From the sequence record EU863409: 64,000 nt of DNA, one strand, 5' to 3'. Numbering within the stretch: position 1 is the first letter of the stretch; each line of letters starts with the position of its first letter. Source of the stretch: Escherichia phage JS10. Made by a program: the position numbers and the translations under genes. The notes below the pieces were generated by a model. The model made no database searches. It was not told the DNA's origin and worked only from the letters and a program-made list of their open reading frames with translations. This document shows positions 1,400 to 41,217 of the stretch, in pieces.

Positions 1400-3078
1400 T
1401 CTAACACCGTGAATCGCCCAACTTTCTTCATTTGAAGATGTTGGCCATAAGCTTGTGGGTCATGGTCTCGGTGAGAGATAATGAACACGTTCGTATCCTC
1501 AAGGCTATTCAAGATGGTTGCAATGCTCTTAACGCCTTCAGAATCCGTGGCACTATCAAAAACTTCATCAAGAATTAACGTGCTGATATTAACACCTGAT
1601 ACCTTAGAAGCAATATCACGCCATGTAAAAAGAAGTGCGATATCAATACGTGCTTTCTCACCCTGTGAAAATGAAGCATAACTAAAGTCTTCACGTCCAC
1701 GTGATTTAATCGTCTCATTGAATTCTTCGTCTAGGGTAAAGACGTAGTCCGCTTCCATAATCTTCAAATAAGAATTAATCTGCTTATTAAAGATAGGAAT
1801 GTATTTCTTAATAATGGAACCTTTAATACCAGTATCCTTCAACATTTCTGTCAGAATTCCACGATGATATTTTTCCATTACCAAGGACGATTTGGTAGAG
1901 ACGATTTTATCAAGCTCTGCTTGAAGCGCAGCAATCTCTTCGGCATTACTTACGAACTCAGCTGCTGCCTGGTCAATTAATACCTTAACCTTTTTGGCTT
2001 TCTCTACGGCAGTAATGGCTTGCTGCTTATGAGTAGCTATCTGAGATTTAATAGCCAACGCTTTATTGCGTTGTTCGGTTACTTGGTCTTTAATGAGCTT
2101 GAGCTCTTGGTATTGCTCATTAATCTTATCCAAAGATTTTTGAAGCTCAAAGTTTTTATCCTTAATTTTAGTAAGGATATTACCATGCTCTTCTAACCCT
2201 TGCATACACGTAGGGCAGTGACCACCAGTTTCGTATAACTTAACCACCTTTGTAAAGGTTGCCATATCATTTTTGATTGCAAATCCTTTATTACTCAGGT
2301 CACTCATGGAGTCGCTAGGGTCATCATCTACGATAACATTGAGTAATTCATCAGTCAGGGATTCTATGCTCGCCTTCGCAGTCCTGGCTTCTTTAACGAG
2401 CTCATCATACATTAATTGTAGGCGGGCGGCGTTCTCGCCGGATAATTTACGTTGACGTTCTTCGTTGTCATTATAAATTTTAATTTGTTGGGTAATAGAA
2501 TCTTGCTTAACGTCTATTACTTGGATTTGGCTATTAGTCTCACGAATTAAAGATTTGTTCAACTTATCCATATCCGCTAATACAGAAACCTCTAAGAGGT
2601 CTTCGACGAGTTTTCTTCTTGCAGGAGTGGATAGGCCCATAAAAGGGGTATATCCAGCTGTGCCGAGTACGACAATTTGTTTGAAGCTTGCATAGGACAT
2701 TCCGATAAGCTGTTCAAATTCCGCTTGGAAGTCTTTACTGCTGGCAGATTCATCAAGACGTTCACCGTCACAAGAGATTTCAAAAACGTTGGGTTTTTGC
2801 CCGCGTTTGATATAGTATTCTTTGCCATCATATTCCATCCACAGTTCGACCAAAAGGTCTTTCTTGTTACTTGAGTTAATCAACTGCCCTTTCTTAACAT
2901 CACGAAAAGGCTTACCGAACAGAGCAAATGTTACAGCTTCAAGGAATGTTGATTTCCCTGCACCATTTTTACCAGTGACTAAGGTCTTTTGGACCTTATC
3001 AAGTTGGATTGTAATAGGCTGCTGCCCTACCGACATAATATTTTTATACGTTACTTTTTTTAACTTAAAAGTCTTCAT
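1396..3078 (-). CDS. 46: recombination endonuclease ATPase subunit gp46 (SbcC/Rad50-like)
   Basis: Walker A GKNGAGKST near N-terminus, long coiled-coil middle, C-terminal signature/D-loop region; start set to internal ATG (MKTFKLKK) with AAGGA SD giving 560 aa. Confidence 0.9.
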   Translation of the reverse strand: MKTFKLKKVTYKNIMSVGQQPITIQLDKVQKTLVTGKNGAGKSTFLEAVTFALFGKPFRDVKKGQLINSSNKKDLLVELWMEYDGKEYYIKRGQKPNVFEISCDGERLDESASSKDFQAEFEQLIGMSYASFKQIVVLGTAGYTPFMGLSTPARRKLVEDLLEVSVLADMDKLNKSLIRETNSQIQVIDVKQDSITQQIKIYNDNEERQRKLSGENAARLQLMYDELVKEARTAKASIESLTDELLNVIVDDDPSDSMSDLSNKGFAIKNDMATFTKVVKLYETGGHCPTCMQGLEEHGNILTKIKDKNFELQKSLDKINEQYQELKLIKDQVTEQRNKALAIKSQIATHKQQAITAVEKAKKVKVLIDQAAAEFVSNAEEIAALQAELDKIVSTKSSLVMEKYHRGILTEMLKDTGIKGSIIKKYIPIFNKQINSYLKIMEADYVFTLDEEFNETIKSRGREDFSYASFSQGEKARIDIALLFTWRDIASKVSGVNISTLILDEVFDSATDSEGVKSIATILNSLEDTNVFIISHRDHDPQAYGQHLQMKKVGRFTVLE

Positions 3079-3328
3079 CGTTATAAGCATCCTTGATGCA
3101 TGATTCAGCCATATGAATTAATGTTTCTGGAGTATCATCTACCATTACATTAAAGCTAAATTCCACAGCCCAATCGGTAGCAACATAAACTTTAATAAGC
3201 TCGCCGGTATCACGAGTGCTCACGGCTTCAAACCAGAACTTAATTGTACTAGGTTGTCCATCATCATCAATAACTATACAGTCGTGTTCCAGTTCAAGTC
3301 CCGATTTTTTGAATTCATCTAAAGTCAT
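3065..3328 (-). CDS. 46.1-like hypothetical protein
   Basis: 87-aa acidic ORF between genes 47 and 46; ATGA overlap with gene 47 stop. Confidence 0.5.
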   Translation of the reverse strand: MTLDEFKKSGLELEHDCIVIDDDGQPSTIKFWFEAVSTRDTGELIKVYVATDWAVEFSFNVMVDDTPETLIHMAESCIKDAYNDEDF

Positions 3329-4347
3329 CGTGTAACCTCATTATAAAGTTGTGCGGCCATAGTCTTAAGGGCTTTAACGTCTTCTTCAGTGTGGCCATCA
3401 GGAAGGGCGTCGATATAATCATACATCATATCCAAGAGGGATTTAACTTCATCTTCCTCTTCAGAATCATCGATATCAACACTATTATCTACCTTAGACA
3501 CAATACGTAAAGAGTGAACAACCTTTTCAAGCTCTGATTCGAACTTAGTAAGACCGTCATCAATTTTATCGACTATAACACGAACTGCGATATTTGTAAA
3601 ATCTTTGTAATCGATAGTCGCGTTAGGATAATGAATCTTACGGTGCCAACAGGTTTCATTAATGATGAAATCCATTTTATGAGTTTCGGTATCGAAAATC
3701 CAGAAACCACGAGGGTCGTTCTCATCGCCTGCAGTAAGGGTCCATGGAGTACCAATGTACTTGACGTTTGCTGCATCAGAAATAGTATGGAAGTGGCCTG
3801 ACCAAACTTGCTTATACTTTTTAAGGAAATCAGGTTCTAAACCGTGAGATTTCATTCCTTTATAGAAATAGAAACCATTTAATTCCCAATGACCAATACA
3901 GAAATCTGCTGTGGTATTTTTGATATGGTCCATGATATCGGTCGTGTTTTCTTCACACATCCATGGAATCAAATCAATTTCGGTGCCATCAAAGTTAACC
4001 GTAGTAGGTTTTTCAATAACCTTGATATGGTCATATTTACCGAGAACTTCAGAAGCAGCATTAGGAGTCAAGGTATTTTTGTAGTGCATATCATGATTAC
4101 CAACAATGGTATACATGGTAATGCCATTAGCTTTAAGCAAATCAGAGATTTCGCGAGCGAATTCCATACACTTATGGGTAATTGCTTTACGAACGTCAAA
4201 GATATCACCGTATTGAATCCATACGGTAATACCATTTGCTTTAGAATAATCAATAGCGTCTTGGATACCTTGACGTTGGATATTTTGTACCCACACATCA
4301 TCGGCCTTCACTCCAAGGTGCCAGTCACCTGTGTTTAATATTTTCAT
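3325..4347 (-). CDS. 47: recombination nuclease subunit gp47 (Mre11/SbcD-like phosphoesterase)
   Basis: N-terminal MKILNTGDWHLG and GNHD metallophosphatase motifs; start at internal ATG matching T4 gp47 N-terminus. Confidence 0.9.
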   Translation of the reverse strand: MKILNTGDWHLGVKADDVWVQNIQRQGIQDAIDYSKANGITVWIQYGDIFDVRKAITHKCMEFAREISDLLKANGITMYTIVGNHDMHYKNTLTPNAASEVLGKYDHIKVIEKPTTVNFDGTEIDLIPWMCEENTTDIMDHIKNTTADFCIGHWELNGFYFYKGMKSHGLEPDFLKKYKQVWSGHFHTISDAANVKYIGTPWTLTAGDENDPRGFWIFDTETHKMDFIINETCWHRKIHYPNATIDYKDFTNIAVRVIVDKIDDGLTKFESELEKVVHSLRIVSKVDNSVDIDDSEEEDEVKSLLDMMYDYIDALPDGHTEEDVKALKTMAAQLYNEVTR

Positions 4348-4487
4348 AAGCCGAGCACCGTTATCGCAATGCAAAATAAAATTATTGAGATGAACCCATC
4401 AGGAGTAGAAAAGAATCCTATCCAACAGGCTCGTGTGAATGTGTAGAATGCCATGAATAACACGACATATCCTAAAAGTAATTCCAT
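4344..4487 (-). CDS. small hydrophobic membrane peptide (47 aa)
   Basis: ORF below track threshold found by translation: MELLLGYVVLFMAFYTF...; GAGGAG SD; stop overlaps gene 47 ATG (ATGA). Confidence 0.45.
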   Translation of the reverse strand: MELLLGYVVLFMAFYTFTRACWIGFFSTPDGFISIILFCIAITVLGL

Positions 4488-4528
4488 ATGTTCTCCTCAG
4501 TTGGTTCATTTTATCATCCGAATATAAA

Positions 4529-4553
4529 GCAAAAAAGGAGCCTAAGCTCCTTT
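4529..4553 (-). terminator. intrinsic terminator-like hairpin
   Basis: GGAGC-TTAG-GCTCC stem-loop followed by U6 on minus strand. Confidence 0.45.
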
Positions 4554-4715
4554 ACCAATTAATACCCCGTACAGAGGTTCATGAGAAGACCTGAACTTGA
4601 TAGGCTTATAGGTAATAGTACCTTCATTTTCCGCTTTAATACGAGCAGCTTCAAATTTAAGTATCATCTCATTTTTGTCAGATTTAATCTTATCAAAATC
4701 CATCGAATTCGTCAT
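4542..4715 (-). CDS. small hypothetical protein (57 aa)
   Basis: Unlisted ORF MTNSMDFDKIK...; AAGAGG SD 8 nt upstream; stop lies in loop of a terminator hairpin; weak support. Confidence 0.3.
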   Translation of the reverse strand: MTNSMDFDKIKSDKNEMILKFEAARIKAENEGTITYKPIKFRSSHEPLYGVLIGKGA

Positions 4716-7694: not shown

Positions 7695-7949
7695 TTACCT
7701 CAACAGTTTGTATCCAATAAGGTTTTTAATGTACTGGATGTCTTTGATATCCAAATCCAACTTAAGGTCTTTCAGACGGTCGGCCAGGGTCAAAAAGGTT
7801 ACATGCTTCCAATTCTTCACTGGGCAGCAATAAGTTTTCGGGCCGTTGGCGATTTCAATATTCTTATCAGTGACGGTAAGAAAAATTAGGCGCTCATCAT
7901 CCAGATTAAGGGTGATGACATTTTTCATTGAATGCAATTTCAGGCTCAT
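7695..7949 (-). CDS. hypothetical protein
   Basis: 84-aa ORF; ATGA overlap with upstream small ORF. Confidence 0.5.
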   Translation of the reverse strand: MSLKLHSMKNVITLNLDDERLIFLTVTDKNIEIANGPKTYCCPVKNWKHVTFLTLADRLKDLKLDLDIKDIQYIKNLIGYKLLR

Positions 7950-8122
7950 AATTTAATTTCCTTAGCTATCGAACAAAATACACCACGGTCACAAATCATT
8001 TTAATATTAAGGTCAATTATGGTATACCACACATCCAGGCTAGATATTTCAGTTACTAGAACAGCTTTGCCGTTGATTGAATAATACTGGTTGACTTTAA
8101 TTTCTTTATCTTGGATAGTCAT
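7946..8122 (-). CDS. hypothetical small protein (58 aa)
   Basis: Unlisted ORF MTIQDKEIKVNQYY... immediately downstream of a promoter-stem-loop cassette. Confidence 0.4.
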   Translation of the reverse strand: MTIQDKEIKVNQYYSINGKAVLVTEISSLDVWYTIIDLNIKMICDRGVFCSIAKEIKL

Positions 8123-8776: not shown

Positions 8777-9000
8777 TCTTTCACCTTCATCATTTTAGAA
8801 ATAACACTATGAACAGACTGGATTCGTTTTTCGAACTCAGAATCTTCAAGACCCTTTTCAGTACTCAGCGCACCAATCATCACAAACAGCAATCCAAATG
8901 GGATAACCAGGATTAAAAGGCACACAATAAACAGGACAAATGTAATATTGGCCAGGATATCAGAAACAGCATTACGAAATTTATTCATACGATAGTCCAT
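8773..9000 (-). CDS. small membrane protein
   Basis: 75-aa ORF with one long hydrophobic helix. Confidence 0.5.
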   Translation of the reverse strand: MDYRMNKFRNAVSDILANITFVLFIVCLLILVIPFGLLFVMIGALSTEKGLEDSEFEKRIQSVHSVISKMMKVKE

Positions 9001-9094
9001 GTATTAGTTACAACAAATAACCATTGAGCAGGATACTCAACACCCATGCGCCGGATAATATCATTCATAGATTCGGTTAAGGCATAAAAATTAA

Positions 9095-9568
9095 TCATTT
9101 AAGCGATTTCCTCAGTTGTTTTTTAAATGAATCGACCATTTGTTTCTTTGTGTCAGATTCATTATAAGTCATTCCATGTGAAAGCATTTCAGCAATCATT
9201 TCTTCCTTACCTAATCTACTGAACTCTTTGGTTTTATCAGGAACGAAATTAGGATGGATATTGTTTTCAGTATAATCAGATTTCAGATAGACCAGCAAAT
9301 TCTCTAACCATTCGAGGTAGTCAACATTTTGACCTTTAAGACCAGAACGGTTGAACTTATGCTTCATTTGTCCTTCTGCAGCATTGCACAGGTTACATAG
9401 TAAACCACGAACCTTACCAGCTTTTGGCCCGCTCAATTCATGGTCGTGGTCAAGGTGGTTACTTTGAACATCAGGGTTTAATTCACGTTTACAAATCAAA
9501 CACTTACCACATTGTGCATCATAAAGTTTTTGTTTTTCTTCTTTGTATAATTTGCCGGTCAACAACAT
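9095..9568 (-). CDS. 49: endonuclease VII (Holliday-junction resolvase, gp49)
   Basis: 157-aa ORF with zinc-binding Cys cluster and HDHE motif matching T4 endo VII. Confidence 0.88.
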   Translation of the reverse strand: MLLTGKLYKEEKQKLYDAQCGKCLICKRELNPDVQSNHLDHDHELSGPKAGKVRGLLCNLCNAAEGQMKHKFNRSGLKGQNVDYLEWLENLLVYLKSDYTENNIHPNFVPDKTKEFSRLGKEEMIAEMLSHGMTYNESDTKKQMVDSFKKQLRKSLK

Positions 9569-9789: not shown

Positions 9790-10088
9790 GCGACCTCAAA
9801 TTCATTATCATCGTTAGTCCAAAAACACCAGAATGAAGCTTTAGTATCTTCAAACATTTCTTTAGTGTATTCGTATACCTTACCATTGAATTCGATAGCA
9901 GTTACGCCAATGATTCCAGGATTGCCCCATGGAGAAATCTCCACCTTCAAGATTTTAACTTCAGCACCTTCACAGAGCTCGCCTGACTCAAAACCGCGAT
10001 TGCCGTTTAATTCAGGCCAGTCAACATAATGGTCGACATCTTCTTCAGTAATACGAACAGTTTTACCTTCAAATTCAAATAAATTCAT
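9786..10088 (-). CDS. hypothetical acidic protein
   Basis: 100-aa ORF. Confidence 0.5.
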   Translation of the reverse strand: MNLFEFEGKTVRITEEDVDHYVDWPELNGNRGFESGELCEGAEVKILKVEISPWGNPGIIGVTAIEFNGKVYEYTKEMFEDTKASFWCFWTNDDNEFEVA

Positions 10089-10261
10089 CAGAAGGCCTCA
10101 TCAGAAAAGCGGAGTTGAGCTTCAAGCCAATGAATATAATCCGCTGCGGCAAAAATTAAAGCAGATTCTTCATCGGGTAACTTACGAGAATCCGACAATT
10201 CATAAAGCGAATGTTCAATCAGACGGCCTTTATGACGGCCAACTTCAATTTTGGTACTCAT
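10088..10261 (-). CDS. hypothetical small protein (57 aa)
   Basis: Unlisted ORF MSTKIEVGRHKG...; GGAG SD; first gene after promoter at 10262..10331; stop overlaps next ATG. Confidence 0.4.
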   Translation of the reverse strand: MSTKIEVGRHKGRLIEHSLYELSDSRKLPDEESALIFAAADYIHWLEAQLRFSDEAF

Positions 10262-13341: not shown

Positions 13342-13557
13342 TTAAAGTCCAAATAATTTTTCATAAAATTTAGCGAAAGGCCATGCGATACACATTATAA
13401 TGCCCACTATCCAGAATATAGGCCATACTAGTGTAATGAATACTGCATCATAGCTTGATTCAATTTCGATTGGATTCCAATCACCCGATTTATGAATGAT
13501 AAAGGTCGTCATAAATCCTAGCACAAAGTAAAGGAGAATAAAACCTAAGATTTCCAT
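13342..13557 (-). CDS. small membrane protein
   Basis: 71 aa, two predicted transmembrane helices. Confidence 0.5.
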   Translation of the reverse strand: MEILGFILLYFVLGFMTTFIIHKSGDWNPIEIESSYDAVFITLVWPIFWIVGIIMCIAWPFAKFYEKLFGL

Positions 13558-13558
13558 A

Positions 13559-13639
13559 TTAACCTATAATGTTTGAGAAAATTAGCCACAGAATACCTGT
13601 GGCTATGATTACATAACCAAGAACAGCGAGCCATTCCAT
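13559..13639 (-). CDS. hydrophobic mini-ORF (26 aa)
   Basis: MEWLAVLGYVIIATGILWLIFSNIIG; AAGGA SD; packed between two genes with 1-2 nt spacers. Confidence 0.3.
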   Translation of the reverse strand: MEWLAVLGYVIIATGILWLIFSNIIG

Positions 13640-13641
13640 AA

Positions 13642-14484
13642 TTAATCCTTAAGAAGATTTAGGATATCGATATATTTCTGGCGTTCAGCCTTAGCTTTGG
13701 CATTCAGGCCAGAGAGTCGGAAAATCTCATCATCTTGTTGTTGGATTGTAACATTCAAGCAAGTAAGCAAATTGCTAAAATACTCGATTTGGGCTTGATG
13801 TTTCTCATTGCTGCGCACTGGCACAGGTTCTGGTTTAGGAGCTTCTGAATGCTCTTCAGCCAGGTCTTTAATTTTATAAAGTTTAATACGTTGGCCTACT
13901 CCAGTTTCAGCATCACCAAAACTAAGAACACCGTGTTGTTCTAATTCAGACAGGGCCAAGCGCAGATGGAACTTCCAGTTGTCATATTGACAACCACTAA
14001 AAGTTGAAATGGTATACTCATTTTCATTTCCAGGGTGGTTAACAATATTAAAGATAATCCAATCACCTGAACCGTTAGTCTTAAATGTCATTTGTTTATC
14101 AAGACCTTTTGCAAGGCGAGCACCAAGAGCCAGTAGACGTCGTTGGTTGGCATGAAGGTCTTGAACAACTTCGCCAAATGACATCGCCGGGATTAAACGA
14201 CCGTAGAGGTCGTAGCCTTTGTTATAATTTTTAAGAATAATTTTGGCATTAGCACGAGACAACATACCTGTTTTACGAAGAGTTTTCATGACCCGGTCTT
14301 CTAAGGTAAACAACCCTTTGGTCTTGTCAAAGATTTTAGTGAAGTCATCTTTAACAGTACAAACATTGAACTTGTCCCACATCATATATAGGACCTTTTC
14401 AACCACTTCTTTAGAACTCGGAATACGACCAAATTTAACAACTTTTTTAACTTCAGAACGAATTTGATTAATTGCTTGTGACAT
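13642..14484 (-). CDS. hypothetical protein (280 aa)
   Basis: ORF starting MSQAI with the same 26-nt 5' block as gene 6660..6989. Confidence 0.55.
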   Translation of the reverse strand: MSQAINQIRSEVKKVVKFGRIPSSKEVVEKVLYMMWDKFNVCTVKDDFTKIFDKTKGLFTLEDRVMKTLRKTGMLSRANAKIILKNYNKGYDLYGRLIPAMSFGEVVQDLHANQRRLLALGARLAKGLDKQMTFKTNGSGDWIIFNIVNHPGNENEYTISTFSGCQYDNWKFHLRLALSELEQHGVLSFGDAETGVGQRIKLYKIKDLAEEHSEAPKPEPVPVRSNEKHQAQIEYFSNLLTCLNVTIQQQDDEIFRLSGLNAKAKAERQKYIDILNLLKD

Positions 14485-18922: not shown

Positions 18923-19120
18923 TCAACGGTTATGTTTTAAAATACTATAAAGTTCTTCGACTTGGCTTGCATTCAGACAAATCATATCATTTTCTTGTTG
19001 GAGCGTGATTCCGCCTTTTTCTTCCCAATCTTTAACAAAGATGTCATCGTCAGACTCTTCAACATCTGCCAAAAGGACAATAATACCGTCTTCAGAATTA
19101 CCACTTGGGTCGTATAACAT
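18923..19120 (-). CDS. hypothetical acidic protein (65 aa)
   Basis: Start at internal ATG with GAGGAAA SD; 1-nt overlap with stop of upstream mini-ORF. Confidence 0.4.
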   Translation of the reverse strand: MLYDPSGNSEDGIIVLLADVEESDDDIFVKDWEEKGGITLQQENDMICLNASQVEELYSILKHNR

Positions 19121-19215
19121 TACAGTTTCCTCGCTAGCCATGAAAAGAATAAACCTATTAAAACTGGACCAATAAGCATTGTAAGCCAAGCCCAAGGTTC
19201 AAGATAGTAAATCAT
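19120..19215 (-). CDS. hydrophobic mini-ORF (31 aa)
   Basis: MIYYLEPWAWLTMLIGPVLIGLFFSWLARKL; ATGA overlap with upstream gene stop. Confidence 0.35.
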   Translation of the reverse strand: MIYYLEPWAWLTMLIGPVLIGLFFSWLARKL

Positions 19216-19469
19216 CTCATGCTCCTGTGCCAACAGTTACGTGGCTCACGTTTAAAAATTTCATCATGCATTGACTGACAACCTATACAATATATCACAC
19301 CTTTGATAGCTTGACGTCGTGCTTCAGGAATCTCTTCATCACAATCAAAACAATATTTAGCCGATTCACGTTCAACTGCTACTTGCTTACGGGCGTGTAC
19401 TATAGCGGCCTGAACGACCGCTTCCATTTCGAGCTGTTCAGCTCCGTCCTTAGCAAATCCAACAGCCAT
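19212..19469 (-). CDS. TraR/DksA-type C4 zinc-finger protein
   Basis: 85 aa with C-x2-C-x17-C-x2-C (CFDC...CIGC). Confidence 0.55.
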   Translation of the reverse strand: MAVGFAKDGAEQLEMEAVVQAAIVHARKQVAVERESAKYCFDCDEEIPEARRQAIKGVIYCIGCQSMHDEIFKREPRNCWHRSMR

Positions 19470-31241: not shown

Positions 31242-31394
31242 TTACTTCATATTTACCCAGTTCAGATTTTTTGCTTCAATACGCGTTGCGGCTAGATTAG
31301 CAGCCTCTAGTGAAGAAAATTGAACCACTTGGGAAGTATTCTGCCTTACGCCACCTTGTGGGTGAGTAACAAAAACAATAAGAACATTATACAT
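31242..31394 (-). CDS. hypothetical small protein (50 aa)
   Basis: Unlisted ORF MYNVLIVFVTHPQGG...; GAGGAAAA SD; shares 16-nt initiation region with gene 30255..31214. Confidence 0.35.
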   Translation of the reverse strand: MYNVLIVFVTHPQGGVRQNTSQVVQFSSLEAANLAATRIEAKNLNWVNMK

Positions 31395-36439: not shown

Positions 36440-36515
36440 TGGTCGAGACAGTAGGGATCGAACCTACGACCTACGGTTTAGAAGACCGTTGCTCTTCCTT
36501 CTGAGCTATGCCTCG
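36440..36515 (-). tRNA. tRNA-Arg (anticodon UCU)
   Basis: 76-nt cloverleaf: anticodon stem ACGGT/ACCGT with loop CTTCTAA, T-arm GTAGG-TTCGATC-CCTAC, encoded CCA; unusual C1-G72 acceptor start. Confidence 0.65.
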
Positions 36516-36519
36516 TATT

Positions 36520-36594
36520 TGGCGGACATGCATGGATTCGAACCATGGACCAATTGATTAACAGTCAACTGCTCTACCACTGAGCTACACATCC
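36520..36594 (-). tRNA. tRNA-Asn (anticodon GUU)
   Basis: 75-nt cloverleaf: D-arm TAGCTCAGTGGTAGAGC, anticodon loop CTGTTAA, T-arm CATGG-TTCGAAT-CCATG, encoded CCA. Confidence 0.75.
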
Positions 36595-36598
36595 AAAT

Positions 36599-36672
36599 TG
36601 GTGGCCCTGGGTGGAATCGAACCACCATCCAGCGATTATGAGTCGCTCGCTTGACCGTCCAGCTACAGGGCC
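36599..36672 (-). tRNA. tRNA-Met/Ile2 (anticodon CAU)
   Basis: 74-nt cloverleaf: acceptor GGCCCTG/CAGGGCC, anticodon stem AGCGA/TCGCT with loop CTCATAA, T-arm GGTGG-TTCGATT-CCACC, encoded CCA. Confidence 0.75.
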
Positions 36673-40542: not shown

Positions 40543-41132
40543 TATTTTCTCATAGATGGATGCATAGACATACGAGCCACACGTTGTTCGGCATACGAAT
40601 CAATTTGTGGACGACCTGTAACTATTGTACCATCTATTTCTACAGCAAACGATTTGAAGTTGAATGTTGCTGTAGCGATTATCGCAGGGTCGGAATCTTC
40701 TTTATAAGAGTACTGAATCTCGGAAAGGTCTGATGGCCAACCACCGTAGTAATGAATGCTCATTACGATTTTCTGTTTGTTGTTATCAAGAATGTGGAGG
40801 GTGATAGCCTCAGGCTGGCCTTTAGGATGCCAGGCTTCAGATTCATGTGTTACATAGTTGTTTAATGATAGCATCCATTTATAAACGTCCAGCCATGATT
40901 TCAATTCGCGGTCTACAAGAAAGTTCACAATCAAAGGGTCGAATTCTACAGTAGAACCTGGCAGTTTAGCACGGTTTATACCTTGGGTCGATCCTGGGAC
41001 GTCTGAGACCGGAATATGGATACCTGGTAGTGTTACATCTTGTACGTTCAATTTGAATGACTGCGTCATTCCTGAGTCACTAACCTCTAAGATAAAGTTG
41101 GTAGTGTTAGTTTGGTTAAATAAACCGTTCAT
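40542..41132 (-). CDS. 3: tail completion / sheath stabiliser (gp3) by position
   Basis: 196 aa from internal ATG with AGGA SD; T4 order 1-3-2-4. Confidence 0.6.
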   Translation of the reverse strand: MNGLFNQTNTTNFILEVSDSGMTQSFKLNVQDVTLPGIHIPVSDVPGSTQGINRAKLPGSTVEFDPLIVNFLVDRELKSWLDVYKWMLSLNNYVTHESEAWHPKGQPEAITLHILDNNKQKIVMSIHYYGGWPSDLSEIQYSYKEDSDPAIIATATFNFKSFAVEIDGTIVTGRPQIDSYAEQRVARMSMHPSMRK

Positions 41133-41217
41133 AGGATTCCTATATTGCTTAAGTCCTAGCCAGTGTATAATGGTCCTAGGTCTGTTCCATTCAATAACTG
41201 GCTGGGATAATAGATTA

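Follow-up and report, generated by a model that had tools for sequence, protein, structure and literature searches.

Three short hydrophobic reading frames at gene junctions of a JS98-like T4-type phage are probably accessory membrane-peptide genes

Genes and features around the three frames

The window, by which we mean the whole 64,000-nucleotide stretch of DNA analysed here, can be placed as a JS98-like (Dhakavirus) T4-type coliphage because a 1.7-kb stretch around the short frame that we call ORF-C is 97.9% identical to phage MN04 and 97.5% identical to JS98 over its full length. A preliminary description of this DNA had proposed that three hydrophobic mini-ORFs are coupled to the genes next to them. 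All three (ORF-A, ORF-B, and ORF-C) were confirmed at the coordinates listed below, on the minus strand, which also carries the genes around them, and the coupling contexts were borne out, with ATGA (ORF-A), TAA-T-ATG (ORF-B), and TAATG (ORF-C) leading onto the downstream gene. Each mini-ORF sits exactly between a Shine-Dalgarno sequence (SD) and the start of its downstream neighbour. The following features lie at the ORF-C junction.

18923..19120, minus strand: 65-aa DUF7189 gene (JS98 orf94), downstream of ORF-C (Pfam PF23819, 1e-29)
19120..19215, minus strand: ORF-C, probable gene for a 31-aa hydrophobic peptide of the phrog_12165 / VR7ORF105c family (sequence, PHROG match, tblastn, omega)
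19129..19133, minus strand: SD of DUF7189 itself, GAGGA, within the 3' end of ORF-C (duplex -6.4 kcal/mol)
19212..19469, minus strand: 85-aa DksA/TraR C4 zinc-finger gene, upstream of ORF-C (Pfam PF01258, 1.6e-9)
19222..19226, minus strand: SD of ORF-C, AGGAG, 6 nt before the ATG and within the 3'-terminal part of the TraR-like gene (duplex -6.6 kcal/mol)

ORF-C reads ATG MIYYLEPWAWLTMLIGPVLIGLFFSWLARKL TAA. The TGA of the TraR-like gene overlaps its ATG as ATGA, and its TAA has one base in common with the DUF7189 ATG (TAATG). The match to phrog_12165 covers positions 1-31 of 31 (hmmscan, 1e-23), and tblastn placed ORF-C, 84-100% identical, in 104 Dhakavirus/Gaprivervirus phage records. Annotations of it exist at the TraR-like/DUF7189 junction in VR7 (VR7ORF105c, ADR32480.1) and E33, with others in VR5 (VR5_097, YP_009205791.1), JS09_078, PhAPEC2, and further phages, but JS98 and MN04, the nearest genomes, have none. 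Among 1.84 billion representatives, no distant homologues were found beyond one 50%-identity cluster; a second match, to a 1026-aa protein, was compositional and had no aligned stretch. A TTG at 19233 would lengthen ORF-C to 37 aa, but we rejected this start because the TTG lies within the TraR gene and the SD comes after it, ahead of the ATG. Recoding that would fuse ORF-C to DUF7189 was ruled out as well, since the relative frame varies among phages (TAATG vs. TAAATG); the TAAATG variant leaves both ORF-C and DUF7189 open.

Klebsiella-type relatives have the TraR gene followed directly by DUF7189, with the same AGGAG in use and no ORF-C between the two, and in Bp7, IME281, QL01, and IME341 the TraR gene is deleted and ORF-C is kept together with its AGGAG SD. 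The deletion in these four phages and in phage 005 (loci L041, L042, L092, L093, and L099) removes 234 nt of the TraR/DksA-like gene in frame. What is left is a 7-codon ORF, ATGGCTGATGGCACAGGAGCCTGA (MADGTGA-stop), which preserves the TAATG start with mobD.3 and whose stop lies 1-2 nt ahead of the ORF-C ATG. In phage 005, a deletion runs from codon 13 of ORF-C into DUF7189, so that ORF-C is truncated.

The second junction, between an NrdC.6-like gene and a small membrane ORF, is laid out as follows.

13342..13557, minus strand: 71-aa two-segment membrane ORF (phrog_7899), downstream of ORF-B
13559..13639, minus strand: ORF-B, probable gene for a 26-aa hydrophobic peptide (sequence, 25 records, omega)
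13642..14484, minus strand: NrdC.6-like gene (280 aa), upstream of ORF-B
13646..13650, minus strand: SD of ORF-B, AAGGA, 6 nt before the start (duplex -5.9 kcal/mol)

ORF-B has the sequence MEWLAVLGYVIIATGILWLIFSNIIG. Two nucleotides separate the stop of the NrdC.6-like gene from the ORF-B start, and one separates the ORF-B stop from the ATG of the 71-aa ORF. ORF-B was found in 25 Dhakavirus/Gaprivervirus records, among which it is annotated as a hypothetical protein in RZ (YP_010650958.1) and DK-13 (QMV34006.1); it had no PHROG match, and its exact sequence is absent from a collection of 15 billion proteins. In phages without ORF-B, the junction GATTAATTATGGAA runs directly into the 71-aa ORF with the same AAGGA SD. 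A direct repeat of 10-12 nt, TTAAT(T)ATGGAA, flanks the 82-nt ORF-B unit and is composed of stop, spacer, ATG, and GAA. Comparison of positions 13558..13652 of the window with genomes that lack ORF-B (L082 and L085-L087) showed a single copy of this repeat junction, which is consistent with gain or loss of ORF-B via recombination between the start regions. VR20 carries an ORF-B variant of 25 aa.

The third junction lies directly upstream of gene 47.

3325..4347, minus strand: gene 47 (Mre11/SbcD-like nuclease subunit), overlapped at its ATG by the stop of ORF-A (ATGA) and lacking a good SD
4344..4487, minus strand: ORF-A, 47 aa, T4 gene 47.1 homologue, phrog_6693 (hmmscan, tblastn, omega, AF2 model)
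4493..4498, minus strand: SD of ORF-A, GAGGAG, strong, 5 nt before the start (-9.2 kcal/mol)
4508..4531, minus strand: TGCTTTA, 11 nt, TAAAAT, putative middle promoter before 47.1-47-46, read from the sequence
4534..4553, minus strand: hairpin resembling a terminator, upstream of ORF-A; its T4 counterpart is marked as 'dyad symmetry' in X01804.1

The match of ORF-A to phrog_6693 covers positions 1-47 of 47 (hmmscan, 1.1e-30), and tblastn found homologues in ~600 phage records, including 'orf E' of the original T4 sequence (X01804.1). ORF-A is 80% identical to T4 gp47.1 over 45 residues, from which it differs by one extra N-terminal residue and by the C-terminal tail (VLGL vs. VLDI in T4); both frames lie directly upstream of gene 47, overlap it as ATGA, and have a hairpin before them. 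The exact ORF-A protein is deposited for JS98/JS10 (YP_001595187.1; JS98 RefSeq annotation 47.1). Its conserved core is RACWIGFFSTPDGFIS, and RACW[IV]GFFSTPDGFIS is invariant in 47.1 although the N-terminus of gp47 is merely 68-74% identical and serine codons switch between TCT and AGC. The ATGA overlap of 47.1 with gene 47 was present in all 13 of the 13 IMG/VR loci that carry 47.1.

Many T4-type phages are missing 47.1. There, the hairpin, the promoter-like block, and the SD stand directly before gene 47; where 47.1 is present, they stand before 47.1. The promoter-like block at 4508..4531 is conserved in relatives and resembles the T4 MotA-dependent middle promoter consensus. In some phages the 47.1 slot is filled by homing-endonuclease-like ORFs of 205-251 aa (L046, which is QL01; L072, which is phage 005; and L064). 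The stop of this ORF overlaps the gene 47 ATG (ATGA) in L064 and L072, and the ORF extends a few codons into gene 47 in L046.

Peptides that are both small and hydrophobic tend to escape detection. For T4, the RNAs of 47.1 and mobD.2 have been detected and classed as 'early', and the gp47.1 and MobD.2 proteins were undetected by mass spectrometry (Class_P = NA; PMC9697503 Table S2).

Predicted structure and hydrophobicity

The maxima of hydrophobicity over 17 residues (Kyte-Doolittle) ranged from 2.05 to 2.69 among the three peptides, values in keeping with predicted helices that could span a bilayer. The AF2 model of ORF-C, made with no alignment, has one helix at residues 7-30 (pLDDT 88), and the arginine and lysine at its C-terminus (R-K) suggest an N-out, C-in orientation for the modelled peptide. 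The corresponding model of ORF-A (no alignment, pLDDT 80) has two helices, at residues 2-27 and 30-46, with a break at the conserved T-P of STPDG. The wording 'single-helix hydrophobic' in the preliminary description thus suits ORF-C but does not fit ORF-A. Searches of Pfam, NCBIfam, and PDB gave no match for any of the three peptides, and the sole PDB hit, NirC (E = 3.6), was discarded as noise.

Taken by themselves, the statistics of the window do not set the mini-ORFs beyond chance. Its DNA has 39% GC, and open frames of such lengths, like random ORFs that are hydrophobic, are common there: from the stop-codon frequency, the chance of staying open is ~0.20, 0.15, and 0.05 for 26, 31, and 47 codons, respectively. 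Among 256 short ATG-ORFs in the six frames, ORF-B ranked 3rd, ORF-A 5th, and ORF-C 27th in hydrophobicity. As the evidence from within the window is weak, the case for the mini-ORFs rests on their comparison with relatives.

Selection on the peptides

Homologous DNA was collected from relatives using the flanking genes as queries (16 loci for ORF-A, 14 for ORF-B, and 29 for ORF-C), and codon changes were counted on minimum spanning trees. By this parsimony shortcut, applied to 10-12 unique and closely related sequences per ORF, we counted 42.8 synonymous and 47.2 non-synonymous changes in ORF-A (omega 0.31, P = 7e-8), 13 and 8 in ORF-B (omega 0.20, P = 4e-4), and 18 and 14 in ORF-C (omega 0.21, P = 2e-5). 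The direction of the synonymous excess agrees across the three, and P remained <= 1.3e-3 for the mini-ORFs under a transition bias (kappa) of 1-4. The two shifted sense frames gave omega values of 0.5-2.3. Omega was low as well, as expected, in the antisense frame with which each ORF shares its third codon positions; it is the stop codons, and not omega, that exclude this frame. Scored in the same way, the neighbouring genes had values of 0.07 (TraR), 0.27-0.29 (DUF7189), 0.22 (C-terminus of NrdC.6), and 0.27 (71-aa ORF). Within the first 10 codons of ORF-C in RZ/TH55, there were 4 synonymous and 0 non-synonymous changes.

The synonymous excess is confined to the ORF frame, so purifying selection acts on the peptides themselves, and selection on the amino-acid sequence implies in turn that the peptide does something. 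It had been proposed at the outset to compare conservation of the peptide with conservation of the frame in related phages. This comparison came out in favor of the peptide, with omega values of 0.20-0.31 vs. 0.5-2.3 in the shifted frames.

Relatives in which a frame is interrupted while the flanking genes are intact had been named as what would count against coding function. One such case was found: in VR25, a 16-nt deletion turns ORF-B into MEWLAVLGYVFCG-stop, and both neighbouring genes are intact. This broken copy speaks for dispensability rather than for non-coding status. The mini-ORFs can be called dispensable on account of their clean absence in relatives, the frameshift of ORF-B in VR25, and the truncation of ORF-C in phage 005. 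On this comparison of genomes, all three are accessory, that is, dispensable, kept by selection where present, and occasionally broken.

Coupling to the downstream genes

We paired the 21 nt before the gene 47 start to the anti-SD in related loci, which were counted regardless of kinship. The mean SD duplex energy was -3.2 kcal/mol in loci with 47.1 (n = 13) and -7.7 kcal/mol in loci without it (n = 25). The exceptions, with a weak SD and no 47.1, mostly have another ORF that overlaps gene 47 as ATGA. The gene 47 SD is also weak in phages with a homing-endonuclease-like ORF in the 47.1 slot. Within the window, the SD energies of the downstream genes are -5.3 for gene 47, -3.6 (weak) for the 71-aa ORF, and -6.4 (good) for DUF7189. 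Since the SD of gene 47 is poor where 47.1 is present, the hand-off from 47.1 is probably the main initiation route for gene 47. These comparisons support a putative relay of ribosomes by the mini-ORFs.

RNA structure that could hide the gene 47 start was looked for at the 47.1/47 junction, and the fold was no better than in shuffled sequences (z = -0.45). An origin of the mini-ORFs by partial duplication of the 5' end of the next gene was rejected. In this comparison, each mini-ORF was globally aligned with the start of the next gene, the ribosome-binding site and ATG being held fixed in the shuffles, and the alignments were like those of shuffled sequences (z = 0.4, 0.4, and -0.9).

Alternative explanations

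Were the frames chance openings in spacer DNA, their conservation would have to reflect recent ancestry or nucleotide-level constraints, which might come from SDs, from RNA structure, or from another start of the downstream gene that overlaps the frame. Chance is not demanding here, with P at 0.15-0.2 for 26-31 open codons and hydrophobic random ORFs being common; moreover, the SD of the next gene sits in the 3' end of ORF-C, and some annotations extend orf94 over ORF-C or choose another frame over ORF-B. Against this stand the substitutions, which concentrate at third codon positions in the ORF frame only, and the alternative 29-aa frame over ORF-B has an omega of 2.2. The ATG further upstream, from which the extended orf94 would start, is a GTG in E33 and has no SD, the 47.1/47 junction showed no significant RNA structure at the z-score given above, and 47.1 is conserved across genera, all of which makes chance frames very improbable. 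A role of the frames solely in carrying ribosomes between cistrons, with a functionless peptide that is degraded, would agree with several observations: stop and start overlap or abut at every mini-ORF junction, gene 47 is without an SD when 47.1 is present, the 7-codon TraR remnant in Bp7-type phages maintains a chain of short ORFs into ORF-C, and the T4 47.1 peptide was undetected (PMC9697503). For such a role an open frame would suffice, yet the ORF frame shows a three- to five-fold suppression of non-synonymous change, as strong as in neighbouring genes, and DUF7189 has a good SD of its own. In addition, relatives without the mini-ORF put the downstream ATG after the same SD, so the relay is not needed. 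We consider it improbable that the frames serve as relays and nothing else. Peptide function and ribosome relay had been put forward as alternatives, and both found support, the former in the omega values and the latter in the SD pattern of gene 47; what did not hold is that the frames exist mainly for relay.

The peptides resemble those of the TisB/Hok/Ibs type in size and hydrophobicity, and the lysis-inhibition gene is 1.4 kb away from ORF-C, which belongs to the mobD-rI neighbourhood. It could be argued from this that they are membrane-damaging toxins or lysis-timing peptides (similar to type I toxins or to holin/antiholin helpers) and not modulators of membrane proteins. However, the mini-ORFs lie inside tightly packed early/middle operons, with no antisense RNA found by the Rfam scan, which matched tRNAs alone, and no dedicated regulatory leader. 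Lysozyme and holin genes are not adjacent, the peptides are freely lost with no visible compensation, and they show no similarity to any entry in Pfam, NCBIfam, or PDB, so that a toxin or lysis function appears quite unlikely.

A model of accessory membrane-peptide genes

The explanation that we prefer, and hold to be likely, is that the three frames are genuine short accessory genes for membrane peptides that also hand ribosomes to the gene downstream. As such they would code for short proteins in the variable ('hyperplastic') early/middle regions of a T4-type phage, and each would be translated from its own SD. The 26-47 residue hydrophobic, helical products most likely insert in the host inner membrane, ORF-B and ORF-C as predicted single-pass helices and ORF-A (T4 gp47.1) as two predicted helices around the STPDG turn. 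The terminating ribosome would then be passed to the downstream cistron via ATGA, TAATG, or TAA-N-ATG. By analogy with bacterial small membrane proteins, the peptide would target a membrane protein of the host or of the phage.

A bolder extension of this model, which we regard as quite unlikely, is that the mini-ORFs represent micro-cassettes that capture ribosome-binding sites and recur in T4-type phages, and that gp47.1 in addition tethers the gp46/47 nuclease to the membrane or regulates it. A membrane-peptide gene would enter or leave between an SD and an ATG, take over the SD, and re-deliver ribosomes to the next gene by termination-reinitiation. If true, a host-directed membrane effector could be gained or lost without disturbing expression of the operon. 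The peptide gp47.1, co-translated with gp47, would hold or regulate the gp46/47 (Mre11/Rad50-like) nuclease at the membrane. Mickelson and Wiberg (1981, cited in PMC3016280) reportedly described a DNase that is associated with the membrane and under the control of genes 46 and 47, which would fit such a tether.

Value for annotation

The comparative evidence is a reason to annotate the mini-ORFs. The closest reference genomes list neither ORF-B nor ORF-C, ORF-B is given in the wrong frame in one relative, and ORF-C or 47.1 is listed in merely about a quarter to a third of the related records. In UPEC01 (L105, 306..395), the +2 frame over ORF-B is annotated (omega 2.2), and in IME08 (L111, 321..593) and Bp7 (L042, 14320..14538), DUF7189 is extended over the 3' end of ORF-C from a start without an SD. 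The frames had been described as unlisted, which holds for the gene track examined at the time but not for the databases, where ORF-A is present in the JS98 RefSeq record and ORF-B and ORF-C in some sister phages. The mini-ORF families are already in public databases, and no new kind of element is indicated.

The mini-ORFs would join a large pool of small phage membrane proteins and may act on envelope proteins or defence systems of the host. Natural variants with and without each ORF offer a handle to separate the function of the peptide from that of the relay.

The initial list was confined to hydrophobic mini-ORFs. Other ORFs of <60 aa fill gaps on the minus strand at 7946..8122, 10088..10261, 31242..31394, 8985..9098, and 4542..4715. 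These five have reasonable SDs, are not hydrophobic, and are probably real small genes; 4542..4715 corresponds to a-gt.2 in JS98. Elsewhere in the window, a 251-aa ORF fills the 675-nt interval at 40543..41217, and a tRNA cluster (Arg-TCT, Asn-GTT, and Met-CAT) lies at 36440..36672 on the minus strand (ARAGORN and Rfam).

Comparison with known systems

Small bacterial inner-membrane proteins such as AcrZ, MgrB, MgtS, KdpF, and CydX have 26-49 aa and one hydrophobic helix, are often encoded in or beside operons, and act by binding larger membrane proteins. By analogy, the mini-ORF peptides would most likely do the same, but they share no sequence similarity with these proteins and are phage-encoded and dispensable.

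Among T4-type phages, small hydrophobic ORFs are also found at other junctions. T4 mobD.2 (34 aa; L100, 2329..2433) is such an ORF, like ORF-C but unrelated to it in sequence, and the same applies to a 27-aa hydrophobic ORF, MNFVSLYGYEIIISLLILIIAILMTRK, in two T4-type phages (L014, 1755..1838; L008, ~2021..2104). A tblastn search with the 27-aa peptide of L014 returned no match, probably owing to low-complexity masking. Both mobD.2 and the 27-aa ORF, which range from moderately to strongly hydrophobic, occupy a slot of the same gene cluster before mobD.1 or mobD.1-like genes, with TAATG/ATGA overlaps, although the exact slot differs from that of ORF-C. Their presence in similar slots thus indicates that small hydrophobic junction ORFs recur in the variable regions.

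Modular shuffling of the PeSL type has been described for T4-type phages, with indels beside terminator-promoter cassettes (PMC2839356, PMC4122927). The 47.1 indel is similar in that it adjoins a terminator-promoter cassette, whereas the edges of the ORF-B indel are the TTAAT(T)ATGGAA direct repeat and not PeSLs. With translationally coupled cistrons, the mini-ORFs share the overlaps of stop and start and the loss of the downstream SD where the upstream ORF is present. They differ from pure leader ORFs in that their peptides are under selection.
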